Source: Minisyncoccia bacterium (GTDB lineage: Bacteria > Patescibacteriota > Minisyncoccia > Phycocordibacterales > UBA5272). Taken from it: 64,000 nucleotides of DNA. Each line of letters starts with the position of its first letter. Position 1 is the stretch's first letter. The position numbers were made by a program, and so were the translations under genes. Below are positions 3,040 to 40,454 of this stretch, one piece after another. The notes below the pieces were generated by a model. The model worked only from the letters and a program-made list of their open reading frames with translations, did not search any database and was not told the origin of the DNA. The DNA is taken from NCBI GenBank assembly GCA_038256975.1, contig JBBSJU010000002.1, positions 1,064 to 65,063 of the forward strand. The letters run 5' to 3'.

Positions 3040-3399
3040 TTATCTGTAGCCTTTCTTTAGGAAGTCAAAAAATCCCCAAAGTGATAGAAGGAGAGTCACT
3101 GTTAGTATTATTGAAAAATGAAGCATCTCAAAAGGTATCTGCAAGAAATAATATAAATATGCTCCGGCAAAAAACCCTGCCAAGCCAAAAACCATATCCA
3201 TTGTGACATTGATAGAAGGTTCAGATATTTTAGTTATCCATTCAAAAACTTCCCAGAGGAGTAATAAGATAGTTGAGGTAAGCAATGCTGATAAAAAAGT
3301 ATAGTCGAGGGCAAAGAAAGTTGCCCCAAGAAGAAAGCCAGACAGAAAATGTACTACTGACCAAAGGTCTGCATATTTCCCATGTTTCCAAATATCCAT
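3040..3399 (-). CDS. hypothetical membrane protein (3-4 TM)
   Basis: 119-aa hydrophobic ORF directly upstream of, and co-oriented with, the SLOG-like gene. Confidence 0.4.
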   Translation of the reverse strand: MDIWKHGKYADLWSVVHFLSGFLLGATFFALDYTFLSALLTSTILLLLWEVFEWITKISEPSINVTMDMVFGLAGFFAGAYLYYFLQIPFEMLHFSIILTVTLLLSLWGFFDFLKKGYR

Positions 3400-16061: not shown

Positions 16062-16135
16062 TGGCTGCCAGACTTGGAATCGAACCAAGATACACAGCTT
16101 CAAAGGCTGTTGTCCTACCTTTAGACGATCTGGCA
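16062..16135 (-). tRNA. tRNA-Gln (anticodon UUG), CCA encoded
   Basis: Reverse complement TGCCAGATCGTCTAAAGGTAGGACAACAGCCTTTGAAGCTGTG...GGTTCGATTCCAAGTCTGGCAGCCA: U1-A72, G73 discriminator, anticodon loop CTTTGAA. Confidence 0.8.
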
Positions 16136-23007: not shown

Positions 23008-23081
23008 AGCGGGATAGAGCAGAGGTAGCTCGTCAGGCTCATAACCTGAAGGCGTCCGTTCGATTCGGACTCCCGCTACCA
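23008..23081 (+). tRNA. tRNA-Met (anticodon CAU; D-loop and anticodon stem resemble initiator type), CCA encoded
   Basis: AGCGGGATAGAGCAGAGGTAGCTCGTCAGGCTCATAACCTGAAGGCGTCCGTTCGATTCGGACTCCCGCTACCA. Confidence 0.8.
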
Positions 23082-23122
23082 AGTCACCCATATAAGTGAA
23101 TTCCCGATATGAAGTGACACAT

Positions 23123-23199
23123 GTCGATATAGCTCAGGTGGTTAGAGCGGAGGACTCATAAGCCTCAGGTCGGTGGTTCGAATCCACCTATCGACACCA
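23123..23199 (+). tRNA. tRNA with CAU anticodon (elongator Met, or Ile2 if lysidine-modified), CCA encoded
   Basis: GTCGATATAGCTCAGGTGGTTAGAGCGGAGGACTCATAAGCCTCAGGTCGGTGGTTCGAATCCACCTATCGACACCA. Confidence 0.8.
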
Positions 23200-23266
23200 T
23201 AACGTACAGTTTTTTAAACCAAAATTGTATGTTATAAATGACGTACCCCACGCAGAAGATGGTTAT

Positions 23267-23340
23267 GCAGTCGTAGCTCAACTGGTTAGAGCGCTGCCCT
23301 GTCACGGCAGAGGTTGAGGGTTCAAGTCCCTTCGACTGCG
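23267..23340 (+). tRNA. tRNA-Asp (anticodon GUC)
   Basis: GCAGTCGTAGCTCAACTGGTTAGAGCGCTGCCCTGTCACGGCAGAGGTTGAGGGTTCAAGTCCCTTCGACTGCG; loop CTGTCAC. Confidence 0.8.
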
Positions 23341-23345
23341 CATAA

Positions 23346-37238: not shown

Positions 37239-37961
37239 ATGAAGCAGCGCCTAGATCTCGCTATTGTCTCTCGCAGCTTGTGTCGTAGTCGAACTGAGGC
37301 ACAGGATAGAATTACTCACGGTAAAGTACTTGTTAATGGAGTAGTAGAATCAAAACCGGCCAAAGAGGTCTCTGATACTGACACTATACGAATCACAGAG
37401 TATATGCCATTTGCTTCCCGTGGTGGAGTGAAGCTACAGCACGCGATTGAATATTTTCACATAGATATACAAGGAAAAACACTGCTTGATGTTGGCTCAT
37501 CGACAGGAGGCTTTACCGATTGTCTTTTGCAAAACGGTGCACAAAAGGTATATGCGGTTGATGTGGGAACATTTCAAATGGTGGATACGATTAAAACAGA
37601 TTCTCGGGTAGTGCTTATGGAGCAGACAGATATTCGTGAAGCCGTGCTTCCTGAACGTGTTCACGGCATTGTTGTCGATGTCTCGTTCATCTCGCTTTCA
37701 AAAATACTTCCCACTCTCTCGAAGTTTATTCTCCCAGGAGGATTCATTATTGCGCTCATCAAGCCGCAGTTTGAAGTGGGTCAGGCAAATCTCGGGAAGG
37801 GGGGTATCGTTGTAAGCGACGAAGCTCGTGAGGATGCAGTAACCGCCGTTTTAAAAAGCGCAACTGAAAATGGGATTTCTATACGTGACGTAACTCCATC
37901 ACCTATTGTTGGTGGTGATGGGAATAAAGAATTTTTACTTTACGGAATATATGCTCTCTAA
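37239..37961 (+). CDS. tlyA: TlyA-family rRNA 2'-O-methyltransferase (S4 domain + FtsJ-like MTase)
   Basis: S4-like RLDLAIVSRSL...; SAM-binding LDVGSSTGGFTD. Confidence 0.85.
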   Translation: MKQRLDLAIVSRSLCRSRTEAQDRITHGKVLVNGVVESKPAKEVSDTDTIRITEYMPFASRGGVKLQHAIEYFHIDIQGKTLLDVGSSTGGFTDCLLQNGAQKVYAVDVGTFQMVDTIKTDSRVVLMEQTDIREAVLPERVHGIVVDVSFISLSKILPTLSKFILPGGFIIALIKPQFEVGQANLGKGGIVVSDEAREDAVTAVLKSATENGISIRDVTPSPIVGGDGNKEFLLYGIYAL

Positions 37962-38556
37962 GGAAGAAAAATTTGAAGCGCTTAAAGAAATTCGCGATGA
38001 ACTCCTTGTGTTTAGCCAGTCGCCACTTTATGAATATCGAACAAAAAATAAATTCTTTCCAGTTATAGGAGAGGGGAGTCATGATGCGCACATTATGATT
38101 ATTGGAGAGGCACCAGGAAAAAAAGAAGCACTCACTGGACGGCCGTTTTGTGGCGCATCAGGAAAATTTTTAGATGAGTTGTGTGCTCATATTGGTCTGG
38201 ATCGCAAAGATGTCTATGTGACTAATATTGTAAAAGATAGACCGGAAGACAACAGAGATCCTTCACAGACAGAAATAAACCTATACGGACCCTTTTTAGA
38301 TAGACAGCTTGAAATTATCCAACCAAGAGTTATTGCAACCTTGGGGCGATTTTCAATGGTCTACATTATGGAAAAACTCGGACTAAAAAATGACGTACAG
38401 CCTATCTCTATACTTCACGGGAAAGTTTTACAGGGCAAACTTCCGTATGGCGACGTGGCACTTGTTTCTTTGTATCATCCAGCCGTGGCGCTTTATAACG
38501 GTAGTATGCGAGACGTTCTTAAAAAAGATTTTGAAAGTCTGAAAGAATTTATATAG
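37951..38556 (+). CDS. uracil-DNA glycosylase, family 4
   Basis: GEAPGKKEALTGRPFCGASGKFLDELC motif; 11-nt overlap with tlyA. Confidence 0.8.
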   Translation: MLSKEEKFEALKEIRDELLVFSQSPLYEYRTKNKFFPVIGEGSHDAHIMIIGEAPGKKEALTGRPFCGASGKFLDELCAHIGLDRKDVYVTNIVKDRPEDNRDPSQTEINLYGPFLDRQLEIIQPRVIATLGRFSMVYIMEKLGLKNDVQPISILHGKVLQGKLPYGDVALVSLYHPAVALYNGSMRDVLKKDFESLKEFI

Positions 38557-38586: not shown

Positions 38587-39177
38587 ATGATAAGTAAAAA
38601 GGTTCTGGAAAAAGAGTACCAAAATAAATCAATTGCTGAGATTGCAAGAAAATATAAACTAGCAACAAGCACCGTTCAGTCTTGGTTTAAGAAGTACGCA
38701 ATAAAAACACGGTCAATTAGTGAGGGTGTGTATCTTAAGCATAACCCAAAAGGTGATCCATTTTCTTTTAGAAAACCAAAAAATATACAGGAGAGTTTTT
38801 TATCGGGATTAGGTGTGGGTTTATTTTGGGGTGAGGGCACAAAAGCGAAATCAACATCAATTCGTCTCGGAAATACGGATCCTGATTTAATCAGACAGTT
38901 CGTAAGGTTTTTAGATACGATATTAGGTATTCCAAAAAACAAATTAAAATTTAGCTTGCAGATATTTTCTGACATGAATCCGATAGCGGCGCAACAATTT
39001 TGGATAAAATATCTAAAGGTCTCAGACTCTCAATTTACTAAGACTACTATTACAAAGTCTCGGGGATTGGGGACGTATAAAACAAAGACAAAATATGGCG
39101 TTCTTATTGTGTATTTTCATAATAAAAAAGCTCGTGATTTCATGATTGGTATGTTAGAATCTCTACGTTGTTATTAA
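38587..39177 (+). CDS. HTH + LAGLIDADG-like (homing-endonuclease-like) domain protein
   Basis: N-terminal HTH (SIAEIARKYKLATSTVQSWFKKY); FLSGLGVGLFWGEGTK loosely resembles a LAGLIDADG motif. Weak. Confidence 0.3.
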   Translation: MISKKVLEKEYQNKSIAEIARKYKLATSTVQSWFKKYAIKTRSISEGVYLKHNPKGDPFSFRKPKNIQESFLSGLGVGLFWGEGTKAKSTSIRLGNTDPDLIRQFVRFLDTILGIPKNKLKFSLQIFSDMNPIAAQQFWIKYLKVSDSQFTKTTITKSRGLGTYKTKTKYGVLIVYFHNKKARDFMIGMLESLRCY

Positions 39178-39192
39178 GCAACATAAGTATAA

Positions 39193-39459
39193 GCCGATGT
39201 AGCTCAGACGGTAGAGCAACTCCATGGTTATCGTATAGCCCACTTTTTTGGAAACAAGATCGTGAATCCTGAATAACGGTTAAAGCTCTGTAAATGGGTA
39301 AGACCGTGGCGATTAAAAATCGCCCGAACGACTGACAAAGGGTACTAAGTTTAAAAAATATGTACAAGATACAGTCTAGTCCTCTTATAAGTTATTTTGT
39401 AATGAAGTAGAGGTGTAAAACGAAGGAGTAGGTCGCCGGTTCGATTCCGGCCATTGGCT
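39193..39459 (+). tRNA. intron-containing tRNA (exons 39193-39228 and 39423-39459); spliced anticodon loop AUGGUAA gives tRNA-Thr(GGU) under the proposed splice sites
   Basis: 5' half GCCGATGTAGCTCAGACGGTAGAGCAACTCCATGGT has acceptor, D arm and the 5' anticodon stem. 3' half AAGGAGTAGGTCGCCGGTTCGATTCCGGCCATTGGCT has the 3' anticodon stem, T arm and acceptor, and pairs with GCCGATG through one G-U pair. The two halves are about 194 nt apart. Confidence 0.55.
39229..39422 (+). other. putative group I intron in the tRNA anticodon loop
   Basis: 5' exon ends in U paired to G in a P1-like helix (GGU|UAUcguAUAGCC); intron ends in G; S-element-like AAGATACAGTC with P7-like GACTG/CAGTC; P9 hairpin CCTCT...AGAGG; internal hairpin GGCGATTaaaaATCGCC. 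Confidence 0.45.
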
Positions 39460-39596
39460 CAAAAGATAGTTTATATTGTTTACCGAGATGAATGGATTTG
39501 TGCTGGTTCCACTTAGTTGTTAAAATATCAAGGTTGGCTACACCCGTAGCTGATGCTGTGCAATGATGTACAGCTGTTCTTTCAAGGGAGTAAAAA

Positions 39597-40454
39597 GTGA
39601 AGAAATATTTGTTGAAGTTAACTACACTTCTCGGAGTGGTACTGTTCTCGTTGCCAACTTACGCGCAGCAGTTCATAAATTTCCCCGTAACGGGACTTGG
39701 TCCGTTCACGCCAGGAATCATGAGTTCTGTACTCGACCACGAAGTGCCTCACACTTTGGTCGTGGGATCGCCGCCGTTCGGCGCACCTTCGTCGGTTGGA
39801 CCATACGGCTATAGTGGGGCTGTGCTTTCCTTTACGGGAGAGTTCTTTCTCGCCTCGTCACCGACGTACCCTAATCAGAACCTGGGGTGTTATCCGAAAC
39901 CTTCGAATGCGAACCAGACGTCGACTTGGCGTGCTGTTCTGCAGAGTGTGTATACCGGAACGACCGGCTGCTTGACGAATGTTGCACTCAACTACGACAA
40001 TCACCCGGGATATGATTACATTATCTCGAGTGGGACAAACGTGCATCCTGCAGCCAGTGGGAACATCATCTTCATGAAGTGCATCAAGACGTTCACCAAC
40101 GCTGGTACTTGTGAGTCGTATGGCGCAGTCGCTGTCGACCATGGGAACGCATTCGTGACGCAATATCTACATATGTCGAACCTGAACTACGGTGTCGCGA
40201 CTAGCGGTTTGAACCAGCCTGTCACTACGAGCTGGGTTCTTGGAAAGGTTGCTGGCGTTGCACCTGGCGGAGTCCCGATCCATCTGCATCTGGAAGTGTT
40301 ACAGCGGAAAGCCTCGCCACCAAATGCAACCAACTACTACGCCCGGGAGAATTACACAATAGTTGACCCTTATGGGTATCGCACAGCATCTTTCTATGCA
40401 GATCTGCTGCTATCGAAGCCTGGATGTCTCTGGGTGGGTGGTTGTTCTTACTGA
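39597..40454 (+). CDS. secreted M23-family (LytM-like) metallopeptidase, GC-rich gene
   Basis: GTG start with AGGGAG SD; signal peptide; HPGYDY (HxxxD) and HLHLEV (HxH) M23 motifs; GC clearly above surroundings. Confidence 0.65.
   Translation: MKKYLLKLTTLLGVVLFSLPTYAQQFINFPVTGLGPFTPGIMSSVLDHEVPHTLVVGSPPFGAPSSVGPYGYSGAVLSFTGEFFLASSPTYPNQNLGCYPKPSNANQTSTWRAVLQSVYTGTTGCLTNVALNYDNHPGYDYIISSGTNVHPAASGNIIFMKCIKTFTNAGTCESYGAVAVDHGNAFVTQYLHMSNLNYGVATSGLNQPVTTSWVLGKVAGVAPGGVPIHLHLEVLQRKASPPNATNYYARENYTIVDPYGYRTASFYADLLLSKPGCLWVGGCSY

Follow-up and report, generated by a model that had tools for sequence, protein, structure and literature searches.

A divergent group I intron in a Patescibacteria tRNA-Thr(GGU) gene and the putative free-standing homing endonuclease gene in front of it

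The window analysed here (the whole stretch of 64,000 nucleotides of a Minisyncoccia bacterium) holds a tRNA gene in two halves, directly preceded by an open reading frame (ORF) on the same strand, which raises the question whether this tRNA gene still works and what, if anything, the neighbouring ORF has to do with its interruption. Exon 1 (39193-39228, forward strand) comprises the 5' strand of the acceptor stem, the D arm, the 5' strand of the anticodon stem and the loop bases A32, U33, G34, G35 and U36 (as read: GCCGATG TA GCTC AGACGGTA GAGC A ACTCC AT GGT). Exon 2 (39423-39459, forward strand) continues with A37 and A38, followed by the 3' strand of the anticodon stem, the variable loop, the T arm, the 3' strand of the acceptor stem and a U as discriminator (AA GGAGT AGGTC GCCGG TTCGATT CCGGC CATTGGC T; CCA is not encoded). 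Both halves, which the initial annotation had reported together with an insert of about 194 nt, can be read directly, with the insert at 39229-39422. Joined in silico, they give a clean 74-nt cloverleaf with stems of 7/4/5/5 bp that ARAGORN identifies as tRNA-Thr(ggt), and genes without the intron that follow the same ORF at this place are ordinary tRNA-Thr(GGU), in agreement with the identity that had been proposed for the spliced product. The identity elements of E. coli tRNA-Thr (G1-C72, C2-G71, G35 and U36) are all present in the tRNA sequence of the window.

The intron mode of ARAGORN, which had been suggested as a check, returned identical gene ends and an identical 194-nt insert, but placed the boundary one base off and thereby called Pro(GGG) with an intron at 35/36 instead of Thr(GGU). 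This call was ruled out by the rule of a U at -1 and a terminal G, as well as by comparison with relatives: only the 36/37 boundary with anticodon GGU puts a U before the 5' splice site and a G at the end of the intron, an arrangement common to every relative. Default ARAGORN and the Rfam tRNA model gave no match at the locus (for Rfam also none at E <= 10). Since standard tools report no tRNA-Thr(GGU) here, the genome can look short of an essential tRNA, which makes the locus an annotation trap. No second tRNA-Thr was found within the 64-kb window either, an intact further copy of tRNA-Thr(GGU) having been named beforehand as a sign that the locus is a pseudogene.

The insert reads as a group I intron of 194 nt without an ORF (39229-39422, forward strand, like all elements below) at tRNA position 36/37, an assignment based on family alignment and covariation. 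P1 (39226-39240) pairs GGUUAU (39226-39231) with AUAGCC (39235-39240) around the loop CGU and contains the wobble U39228·G39238; the U·G and two G-C pairs are invariant in the 53 + 97 aligned sequences introduced below, and the two counted pairs of the intron-internal extension covary. The P2 hairpin (39241-39264), with compensatory changes in 9-10 of its 10 pairs, is capped by a GAAA tetraloop (39251-39254), this loop (L2) being of the GNRA type in 142 of 149 relatives. The 5' strand of P3 (CCU, 39268-39270) pairs with AGG at 39339-39341 in a pseudoknot with P7, and double changes from C-G to U-A are seen at all three pairs in each of the two alignments (98-99% paired). P4 (39276-39281 with 39302-39307) encloses P5 (39286-39288 with 39296-39298) through A-rich J4/5 and J5/4, the whole spanning 39276-39307; P4 is invariant and P5 has compensatory changes in 3/3 pairs. 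The P6 hairpin follows (GGCGA/UCGCC, 39308-39324; compensatory in 4-5 of 5 pairs), and then the R-like core element CGAACGACUGACAAAGG (39325-39341), which is nearly invariant across the family and consists of J6/7, the 5' strand of P7 (GACUG, 39330-39334), J7/3 and the 3' strand of P3.

In the P8 hairpin (39342-39365; compensatory in 4/4 pairs) a CUAAG...UAUG motif resembles the 11-nt GAAA-tetraloop receptor, and the strict form of this motif occurs in 20 relatives, 18 of which have a GAAA loop in L2 (Fisher p 0.0012, relatedness ignored). The S-like core element AAGAUACAGUC (39366-39376), invariant in the family, provides J8/7 and the 3' strand of P7 (CAGUC, 39372-39376). The P7 pairing GACUG/CAGUC is predicted from complementarity and position. 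Both the R-like CGAACGACUGACAA and the S-like element resemble the textbook R and S elements of group I introns. P9 (CCUCUU/(U)AGAGG, 39381-39413) has compensatory changes in 6/6 pairs. The last three intron bases, ACG (39420-39422, the final G being 39422), form the complement of the P1 loop CGU (39232-39234); an exact complement of the last three bases lies within the P1 region in 91/143 relatives, compared to 45.9 ± 4.1 after shuffling (0/2000 shuffles reach 91), and pairing reaches 96% in the corresponding alignment columns (11-13 with 306-308). In many relatives the guide region (CCCU) could form a P10 pairing with AAGG of the 3' exon; in the window (UAUA) it could not, and P10 is not claimed. 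The features that the initial annotation had singled out (P1 with its U·G, P7, P9 and the final G) are real, and it was right to see a compact group I intron, now with its full architecture and strong covariation in relatives.

This covariation comes from some 150 distinct relatives of the intron, which have in common the P1-P9 fold with the P3/P7 pseudoknot, a U·G that never varies at the 5' splice site, and a terminal G wherever the boundary can be set. Among 53 genome-derived introns 95.3% of the cells are paired, with compensatory changes in 33/50 pairs, and 97 distinct introns from a separate metagenome sample (one row of which is the window itself, and in which P7 was fixed by the search pattern) give 96.1% and 33/47 pairs. 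When the partners are slid by 1-3 columns as a control, the paired fraction drops to 31-43% among the genome-derived introns, and to 31-46% over the slid controls of both sets. P2, P3, P5, P6, P8 and P9 all contain compensatory changes at 90-99% pairing, and the strands follow one another as in group I; P4 and P7, both perfectly complementary, are without variation and therefore provide no covariation evidence. A covariance model of the family finds the window copy at 174.8 bits (its training sequences included this copy) and no second one in the 64 kb.

The general group I model, RF00028, has no match in the window, neither at its gathering score nor at E <= 10, and it scores the relatives of the Thr intron below threshold (best 26.9 and 19.3 bits, with a cut-off of 50). 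A connection exists nonetheless: the family model also matches a tRNA-Tyr intron (locus L039; 23.3 bits, E 9e-6) which RF00028 itself scores at 61.7 bits, above threshold, so that this intron is a bridge between the Thr family model and RF00028-positive introns. To reject the intron for want of a covariance-model hit, as the initial annotation had envisaged, would be wrong here because RF00028 is known to be blind to this class. The weak Rfam matches at the locus (freshwater-2, UPD-PKc, permuted tmRNA and lysine riboswitch) are chance hits.

It is conceivable that the split tRNA is simply a dead gene with a non-splicing insertion and an unrelated ORF as its neighbour, and the silence of the default tRNA and intron detectors agrees with that. 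However, both tRNA halves are kept intact in about 150 relatives, with compensatory changes in the anticodon stem; the insert sits at exactly one position, with a U before it, a G at its end and covarying helices; the window has no other tRNA-Thr(GGU); and the ORF adjoins the tRNA at 81/81 places. A dead gene is therefore extremely improbable, and we are confident that this is a working tRNA gene with a group I intron.

The initial annotation considered an intron in such a tRNA-Thr unusual, which is not supported, as the class is already published and the window intron is a further member of it. Introns at position 36/37 of Patescibacteria tRNA-Thr(GGU), missed by RF00028 and mis-called by ARAGORN, have been described by Nakagawa et al. 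(2026, PMC13011429), who found them in 3/95 complete Patescibacteria genomes; the term 'divergent group I introns' is attributed there to Castelle et al. (2018). More generally, the tFind survey brought the tally of tRNA types with introns from 4 up to 21 (Williams 2020, bioRxiv 10.1101/2020.01.27.920355). The published divergent Thr introns and the window intron share the host gene, the site, the phylum and the size range, and the relatives collected here behave like the published ones during detection, with RF00028 blind and the ARAGORN boundary wrong (Arg(GCG) or similar). Splicing was demonstrated in PMC13011429 for Asn and Asp introns, none of them of the Thr type, and endonuclease genes were searched for only inside introns of more than 500 bp; the upstream ORF family, its remnants and the relatives in phage genes are not mentioned there. 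Since the class is in the literature under the name of divergent group I introns of Patescibacteria tRNA-Thr(GGU), there is nothing new in the intron itself, which has little weight as a discovery.

The more useful part is the neighbouring ORF (38587-39177, forward strand, 196 aa), which belongs to a nameless, conserved and previously unremarked Patescibacteria family. Nearly all of its 237 homologues are unnamed hypothetical proteins of 190-210 aa. As had been suggested initially, the ORF appears at fold level to combine a helix-turn-helix (HTH) with a LAGLIDADG-like domain (its AF2 model has a pLDDT of 88.7): an N-terminal HTH DNA-binding domain is predicted at about residues 4-52 (38596-38742), and a single LAGLIDADG-like domain at about residues 67-194 (38785-39168), with one helix inserted between its third and fourth strands. 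The motif GLGVGLFWGEG (residues 74-84; 38806-38838) forms the LAGLIDADG-like helix, which ends in an acidic residue followed by Gly (E83-G84); 33 homologues all share G74, G76, G78, L79, W81, G82 and E83, and GEG, including the motif Glu, is invariant in 81/81 sampled copies, with or without an intron. Profile searches point the same way at low scores, with LAGLIDADG_3 of Pfam matching residues 78-116 at 18.1 bits (E 0.0033, below the cut-off of 22.5) and HTH profiles matching weakly; NCBIfam and PDB sequence searches gave no match. The family looks like a free-standing homing endonuclease.

Of the 289 confirmed matches among GTDB species representatives, the best 80 were sampled together with the window, and all 81 ORFs stand directly 5' of a tRNA-Thr(GGU) on the same strand, whatever lies further upstream. 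The association that the initial annotation had suspected from this one locus is real, and far stronger than a single locus could reveal. At 76 measured loci the ORF overlaps the tRNA in 40 cases and ends 0-50 nt before it in 33. An intron is present in 64/81 (79%) of the ORF-adjacent tRNAs and absent from 17/81, compared to about 3% (3/95) of the complete Patescibacteria genomes in PMC13011429. Conversely, 84 independently sampled introns were accompanied by a full ORF in 28 cases, by a partial or distant ORF in 9 and by no ORF in 47. ORFs are thus also seen beside intron-less genes, and most introns lack one. At no fewer than seven further sampled intron loci (L086, L091, L163, L168, L199, L109 and L180) 5'-truncated or frameshifted remnants of the ORF abut the tRNA, as predicted by the invasion-and-decay cycle of homing endonuclease genes.

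The exons offer a candidate for what such an enzyme might recognise. The flank CC(A/T)TGGT|AAGG is present in 53/54 intron-bearing alleles, half of which read exactly ACTCCATGGTAAGGAGT. The outer CC..GG is kept in only 4/17 intron-less alleles beside an ORF, most of which differ in the anticodon stem (a variant anticodon arm seen beside ORFs is ACACAATGGTAATGTGT). The conserved flank might alternatively have a role in splicing instead of DNA recognition. At locus L038 an intact ORF stands beside an intron-less tRNA with the exact putative target sequence, which counts against this target specificity, because an active endonuclease with such specificity would cut that tRNA gene.

The best explanation overall, and in our view a probable one, is that an ORF-less intron shares the same tRNA target with a free-standing homing endonuclease gene in what is called 'collaborative' or 'trans' homing, as known from phages; indeed, an ORF-less intron and a free-standing putative endonuclease gene lie beside the same gene here, and each also occurs alone. 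On the RNA side, the transcribed intron would fold into P1-P9 and present the U36·G wobble in P1, free guanosine would attack there, and the released exon 1 would then attack after the terminal G39422, so that ligation yields AUGGU|AA as the anticodon loop; these steps are deduced from the fold. The exons would be held together mainly by the tRNA anticodon stem, and the last three bases, through their covarying pairing with the P1 loop, may help to place the 3' splice site. On the DNA side, the upstream gene would most likely encode a homodimer (HTH plus a single LAGLIDADG domain) whose candidate target in tRNA-Thr(GGU) genes without the intron is the pseudo-palindromic DNA of the anticodon arm (ACTCCATGGT^AAGGAGT). 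In repair from a donor allele, the endonuclease gene would be copied together with the intron 26-60 bp away, and self-cleavage of the carrier would be prevented by the intron or by an altered anticodon stem. For this endonuclease mechanism taken by itself, our confidence falls just short of an even chance, and homing-endonuclease function of the ORF, to which the initial annotation had also alluded, stays a conjecture.

What tempers it is, in part, the persistence of the protein: ORF identity stays at about 50% across very distant lineages and the motif is kept in all 81 copies (the best 80 of 289 and the window), so a host function under selection could also be at work. The ORF could be a domesticated, non-cutting LAGLIDADG/HTH protein that serves the host or the intron, as a WhiA-like regulator of the tRNA operon or as a maturase, and it would then stay beside tRNA-Thr(GGU) because both are co-transcribed. 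Several observations make this unlikely. The acidic residue of the motif, which WhiA has lost, is invariant here. With 47/84 introns lacking any ORF and others having truncated remnants only, the protein is dispensable for the intron and for the tRNA alike, and a maturase role as its sole function was rejected on the ground that most introns have no ORF. The intron is moreover compact, with tertiary contacts of its own, like self-sufficient tRNA introns. Finally, the family is sporadic, its 289 confirmed places among GTDB species representatives being presumably a small minority of Patescibacteria species.

Collaborative homing also has to be weighed against an active free-standing endonuclease with its target elsewhere, for instance at the tRNA 5' edge ('intronless homing'), in which case the intron and the ORF would be independent parasites. 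That the two assort independently in both directions, that the intron state is scattered nearly at random over the ORF tree, that the insertion point of the ORF is fixed at the tRNA 5' end, and that distant paralogues of the ORF lie about 60 nt before other tRNA genes, with or without introns, all agree with such a separate target. Yet an intron frequency of 79% at ORF places against some 3% in complete genomes is hard to obtain without linkage or cooperation, and the intron-less alleles next to an ORF mostly differ in precisely the anticodon stem, where the collaborative target would be. A separate target is therefore considered improbable, more so than domestication.

The intron RNA family is also found in phage protein-coding genes. 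One gene (L088) has three related introns; joining its exons gave no single open frame, and a comparison of the gene with PHROGs gave no match. A search for the ORF family in viral contigs returned only two weak matches (24% identity), so the ORF is not obviously phage-borne, though the intron family is.

Somewhat more tentatively than the endonuclease mechanism itself, it is possible to generalise: Patescibacteria may possess free-standing endonuclease genes of the HTH plus single-LAGLIDADG type that home to the 5' edges of tRNA genes (Thr-GGU, with paralogues at Tyr-GUA and Thr-UGU) and act together with group I introns that lack an ORF and sit in the anticodon loop. Cellular tRNA genes would then provide their first case of collaborative homing, with all stages of invasion, decay and loss, and the Rfam-invisible RNA family in phage genes would suggest a phage vehicle. 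The ORF family, standing before one tRNA gene at 81/81 places (the best 80 of 289 plus the window), found with a strong excess of intron-bearing alleles and in intact, truncated and absent states, would, if it encodes an endonuclease, show through naturally occurring intermediates how a target comes to be shared by ORF-less introns and free-standing endonuclease genes. It would furthermore help to explain the persistence of intron-rich tRNA and rRNA genes in very small Patescibacteria genomes, and contribute a homodimeric LAGLIDADG enzyme that is compact and has a defined candidate target of 17-20 bp.

Compared to known LAGLIDADG proteins, the ORF stands apart in several respects. WhiA (DUF199), a transcription factor of LAGLIDADG origin, has two LAGLIDADG domains, both degenerate, carries its HTH at the C-terminus and lacks the catalytic acidic residues, whereas the ORF family has one LAGLIDADG-like domain, an N-terminal HTH and an invariant Glu. 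The single-motif homodimeric enzymes I-CreI, I-MsoI and I-CeuI are intron-encoded and lack both the additional N-terminal HTH and the helix inserted between the third and fourth strands of the ORF model; the ORF is free-standing, and too distant in sequence from I-CreI-type enzymes for Pfam or PDB sequence searches. With respect to the RNA, the introns of Azoarcus tRNA-Ile and Anabaena tRNA-Leu (subgroup IC3) resemble the window intron in being about 200-250 nt long, ORF-less, located in the anticodon loop and limited to P1-P9, but differ from it in core sequence, insertion site and host tRNA. In introns of this type helical receptors are contacted by GNRA loops (L2 with P8), and it is the anticodon stem that brings the exons into line; covarying pairs that join the P1 loop to the 3' tail are not a known feature of theirs. 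The phylogeny of Nakagawa et al. (PMC13011429) places the Thr introns on a long branch with IA-type Patescibacteria introns.

Collaborative homing, for its part, is an established concept (PMC3984707; PMC2790892), exemplified by the phage pairs F-CphI with the psbA intron of cyanophage S-PM2 (Zeng et al. 2009) and MobE with the nrdB intron of T4 (Wilson & Edgell 2009, PMC2790892; reviewed in PMC3984707). The host of these pairs is a phage protein gene and their enzymes are EndoVII-like or HNH, whereas a cellular bacterial tRNA gene and an HTH plus LAGLIDADG-like protein would be involved here. Unlike in the phage pairs, the ORF adjoins its putative target gene at the 5' end or runs into it, and in that gene the cleavage site is a candidate only. 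What the phage pairs and the Thr locus have in common is that both elements, the intron and the free-standing gene, also occur separately.

Direct reading of the sequence at 39193-39459 (forward strand) bears out both tRNA halves described in the initial annotation: exon 1 (39193-39228) runs from acceptor GCCGAUG through the D arm into the 5' side of the anticodon stem (ACUCC) and ends with AUGGU of the loop, and exon 2 (39423-39459, same strand) continues the loop with AA, followed by GGAGU, a variable loop of 5 nt, a T arm of canonical form, acceptor CAUUGGC and a discriminator U. Default ARAGORN missed this tRNA while calling four others in the window, and Rfam reported neither a tRNA nor an intron at the locus, at gathering scores or at E <= 10. 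When the exons are joined in silico, they give a regular 74-nt cloverleaf that ARAGORN names tRNA-Thr(GGU), the identity originally proposed, and the corresponding boundary at 36/37 (between U36 and A37) is common to all relatives. In intron mode, ARAGORN agreed on both gene ends and on an insert of 194 nt, but placed the boundary one base to the left and called Pro(GGG). That boundary was rejected, since only Thr(GGU) 36/37 gives an exon 1 that ends in U together with an intron that ends in G; mis-calls by ARAGORN (Arg-GCG, His-GUG, Pro-GGG) occur among the relatives too. The other tRNAs of the window (Gln(UUG), two Met(CAU) and Asp(GUC), at 16062-16135 and 23008-23341) are all intron-free, and the same Met-Met-Asp cluster is found in L022, L029, L037, L042 and L066, where it lies just upstream of homologues of the ORF that precedes the split tRNA.

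Introns at 36/37 of tRNA-Thr(GGU) have been reported for three complete Patescibacteria genomes (Nakagawa et al. 2026, PMC13011429), where the Rfam group I model RF00028 was blind to them, ARAGORN took two of the three for Arg(GCG) 34/35, and only tFind's bacterial tRNA-intron model detected them. The name 'divergent group I introns' comes from Castelle et al. 2018, as cited in that paper, while Williams 2020 had already brought the bacterial tRNA types with a known intron from 4 up to 21. The expectation that such an intron would be unusual in the tRNA-Thr of a CPR genome is out of date, because both this class and the wider range of tRNA types were already published; the window intron is one more member of the known Patescibacteria tRNA-Thr class.

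The insert itself (39229-39422) has no match to RF00028 even at E <= 10; the case for a group I intron is made from its relatives. These were collected in two ways that are independent in method, namely an ORF-protein-guided scan of species-representative genomes (80 loci, the best-scoring 80 of 289) and a metagenome DNA-pattern scan for the core CGAACGACTGACAA-N18-48-ATACAGTC (120 loci). In the MAFFT alignment A2, made from the 53 distinct inserts of genomic origin, invariant blocks alternate with hairpins of variable sequence, from which RNAalifold recovers P1, P2, P4, P5, P6, P7, P8 and P9; P3 (CCU 39268-39270 with AGG 39339-39341) was found by a column-pair scan and added by hand. Standard pairs fill 95.3% of the cells and 33 of the 50 pairs change on both sides, compared to only 31-43% paired in controls that slide the 3' partners 1-3 columns away. 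R1, the covariance model built from A2, was used to align 100 metagenome introns, 97 of them distinct (one being the window itself), with 96.1% of cells paired, 33/47 pairs compensatory, and 34-46% in the slid controls. P4 and P7 are perfectly complementary but do not vary at all and so cannot show covariation (for P7 in the metagenome set, the search pattern itself fixed the sequence). Equally constant are the U·G of the 5' splice site, the two G-C pairs of P1 and the G that ends the intron. The strand order, with crossing P3 and P7, is that of the group I pseudoknot, and the minimum-energy fold of the window copy alone gives the same helices. Of 149 sequences, 142 have a GNRA tetraloop in L2; a P8 motif CUAAG...UAUG, whose sequence resembles the 11-nt GAAA receptor, occurs in 20, of which 18 have a GAAA loop in L2 (a test that ignores kinship), and the window has both.

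A bridge to curated introns is offered by other tRNA genes of the same genomes. RF00028 scores 61.7 bits, above its cut-off, on a tRNA-Tyr intron (locus L039) and 42.5 bits on a tRNA-Asp intron (L048), and only 26.9 and 19.3 bits on two Thr introns. R1 in turn matches the whole length of the tRNA-Tyr intron that RF00028 recognises (23.3 bits, E 9e-6), which, together with the architecture, makes 'group I intron' the right family. Judged by its architecture, the insert is thus a group I intron as first suggested, although the defining match to the curated model was not obtained; a search of the literature found no demonstration of self-splicing for a Thr-type intron. The two genes concerned are a tRNA-Tyr(GUA) with a 212-nt intron (L039, 2132-2426) and a tRNA-Asp(GUC) with a 213-nt intron (L048, 185-472, reverse strand), so that different tRNA intron types coexist in one small genome.

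Outside tRNAs, R1 matches three stretches of L088 (identical to IMG/VR contig L226; 6274-6469, 6740-6939 and 7563-7752), all in one gene, inside a 1.5-kb stretch of it, downstream of a long Ala/Gln/Glu-rich ORF that is taken to be scaffold-like, as well as single copies in L188, L173, L131, L189 and L160. The core pattern was found in 42 IMG/VR contigs (L203-L244), with 0 of 44 matches in a tRNA, and R1 scored 44-143 bits on 15 viral loci, none of which RF00028 recognised at gathering. Apparently, these introns of the R1 family reside in phage protein-coding genes.

One further pairing concerns the 3' splice site. A triplet in the P1 loop can pair with the three bases that end the intron (CGC/GCG, CAC/GUG, CAU/AUG or CGU/ACG), in the window CGU 39232-39234 with ACG 39420-39422 (A2 columns 11-13 and 306-308, 96% paired). 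Exact complements occur in 91 of 143 sequences versus 45.9 ± 4.1 when the tails are shuffled among sequences, figures that are inflated by kinship. This candidate pairing, of which we know no example in other group I introns, may help to place the 3' splice site at the active centre, replacing a weak P10.

The ORF directly upstream (38587-39177, forward strand) had been described as HTH plus LAGLIDADG-like. The Pfam matches of its 196-aa product are all sub-threshold (several HTH families at residues 4-42, LAGLIDADG_3 at residues 78-116), and Foldseek gave no significant match with its AlphaFold model (pLDDT 88.7), in which a small N-terminal domain of helices precedes a C-terminal domain of alpha/beta type. 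At fold level the description is supported with moderate scores, and the product is probably an HTH joined to one LAGLIDADG-like domain. At E <= 1e-3 the protein has 237 homologues. Among the 120 listed, nearly all measure 180-230 aa, and each name given is 'hypothetical protein', either in an NCBI MAG record of Patescibacteria or an unclassified bacterium or, for JGI, with nothing further. Invariant residues in the alignment include the Glu of the motif GLGxGLYWGEG and RLGNTDP, among others. Distant paralogues (~27-32% identity) lie ~60 nt upstream of other tRNA genes, namely an intron-less tRNA-Tyr(GUA) (L151), a tRNA-Tyr(GUA) split by a canonical group I intron of 187 nt (L181) and a tRNA-Thr(UGU) (L100). 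A tRNA-Asp(GUC) in L199 begins where a canonical LAGLIDADG ORF (..DGDGCVYF..) ends.

The proposed link between ORF and split tRNA is borne out well beyond the window. A tRNA-Thr(GGU) on the same strand comes next after the ORF in each of the 80 genome loci and in the window (ten loci where automatic tRNA calling failed were inspected by eye); it contains the intron in 64 cases and lacks it in 17. The ORF overlaps the tRNA in 40 of 76 measured loci and ends 0-50 nt before it in 33 (15 nt in the window, 39178-39192); the overlap is exactly 10 nt in 30 of the 76 (e.g. L006 3076-3085, L012, L019, L041, L045), as the ORF stops at the UAG formed by tRNA positions 8-10. Cutting by RNase P at the tRNA 5' end would strip the last codons and the stop from the mRNA, and ORF translation and tRNA maturation should therefore compete. 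Further upstream the neighbours vary (tRNA-Tyr, tRNA-Asp or protein genes, UDG-family in the window), which leaves ORF plus tRNA as the constant unit. The window neighbours are ordinary genes: an S4 + FtsJ-type methyltransferase (TlyA-like, 37239-37961), a uracil-DNA glycosylase superfamily protein (37906-38556) and an M23 peptidase (39597-40454). The methyltransferase ORF and the longest UDG ORF (TTG start) overlap by ~55 nt, and the true UDG start may lie further downstream. The link to tRNA-Thr(GGU) is real and statistically strong, and apparently undescribed, a literature search having found no description of such tRNA-flanking genes.

Conversely, 84 distinct metagenome tRNA-Thr introns with at least 700 nt of upstream sequence were preceded by a full ORF in 28 cases, none in 47, and partial or distant matches in 9. 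Clear remnants adjoin the tRNA in seven loci (L086, L091, L163, L168, L199, L109, L180), being 5'-truncated without the LAGLIDADG motif, interrupted by internal stops or frameshifted, and always retaining the 3' end next to the tRNA. Where tRNA-Tyr lies upstream, the ORF, if present, occupies the Tyr-Thr spacer, which otherwise measures 26-169 nt. On a neighbour-joining ORF tree, 12 intron-state changes account for 17 intron-less tips, versus 15.6 when shuffled; intron state is scattered almost randomly. The main alternative is that the ORF product has been domesticated to bind DNA or RNA, as a WhiA-like protein or a maturase; the uniform intactness of the sampled ORFs favours it, but the invariant Glu, the many introns without ORF and the existence of remnants argue against it.

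The exons flanking the insertion site differ with intron state. CC(A/U)UGGU|AAGG is present in 53 of 54 intron-bearing alleles (exactly ACUCCAUGGUAAGGAGU in 27), while CC..GG is kept in only 4 of the 17 intron-less ORF-adjacent alleles, and mature tRNA identity is 83% among intron-bearing alleles versus 73-75% otherwise. This pattern fits any of three readings, namely co-conversion of exon flanks during homing, a putative endonuclease target mutated away in intron-less carriers, or a splicing requirement. An exception is L038, with an intact ORF beside an intron-less tRNA-Thr(GGU) (3076-3149) whose anticodon arm is the exact consensus flank of intron-bearing alleles, ACTCCATGGTAAGGAGT; its protein reads RLANTNP in place of the family's RLGNTDP. 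This locus either contradicts self-immunity through target change or carries an inactive variant.

The arrangement would be one of a free-standing homing endonuclease gene and an ORF-less intron, engaged in collaborative (trans) homing on tRNA-Thr(GGU). A single LAGLIDADG domain would imply a homodimer with a pseudo-palindromic target; the anticodon arm would be such a sequence, with the intron inserted within two bases of its centre. The ORF/intron pattern is sporadic yet phylum-wide, and the intron is found among 79% of ORF carriers versus 3 of 95 complete genomes (PMC13011429). Sporadic spread, a fixed position beside one conserved gene, strong intron enrichment, separate occurrence of the two elements and decaying copies are what the collaborative-homing life cycle predicts. 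Collaborative or trans homing is the established name for this gene-intron arrangement (PMC3984707; PMC2790892), and what the sequences suggest here is the same process in a new setting and with a new protein family.
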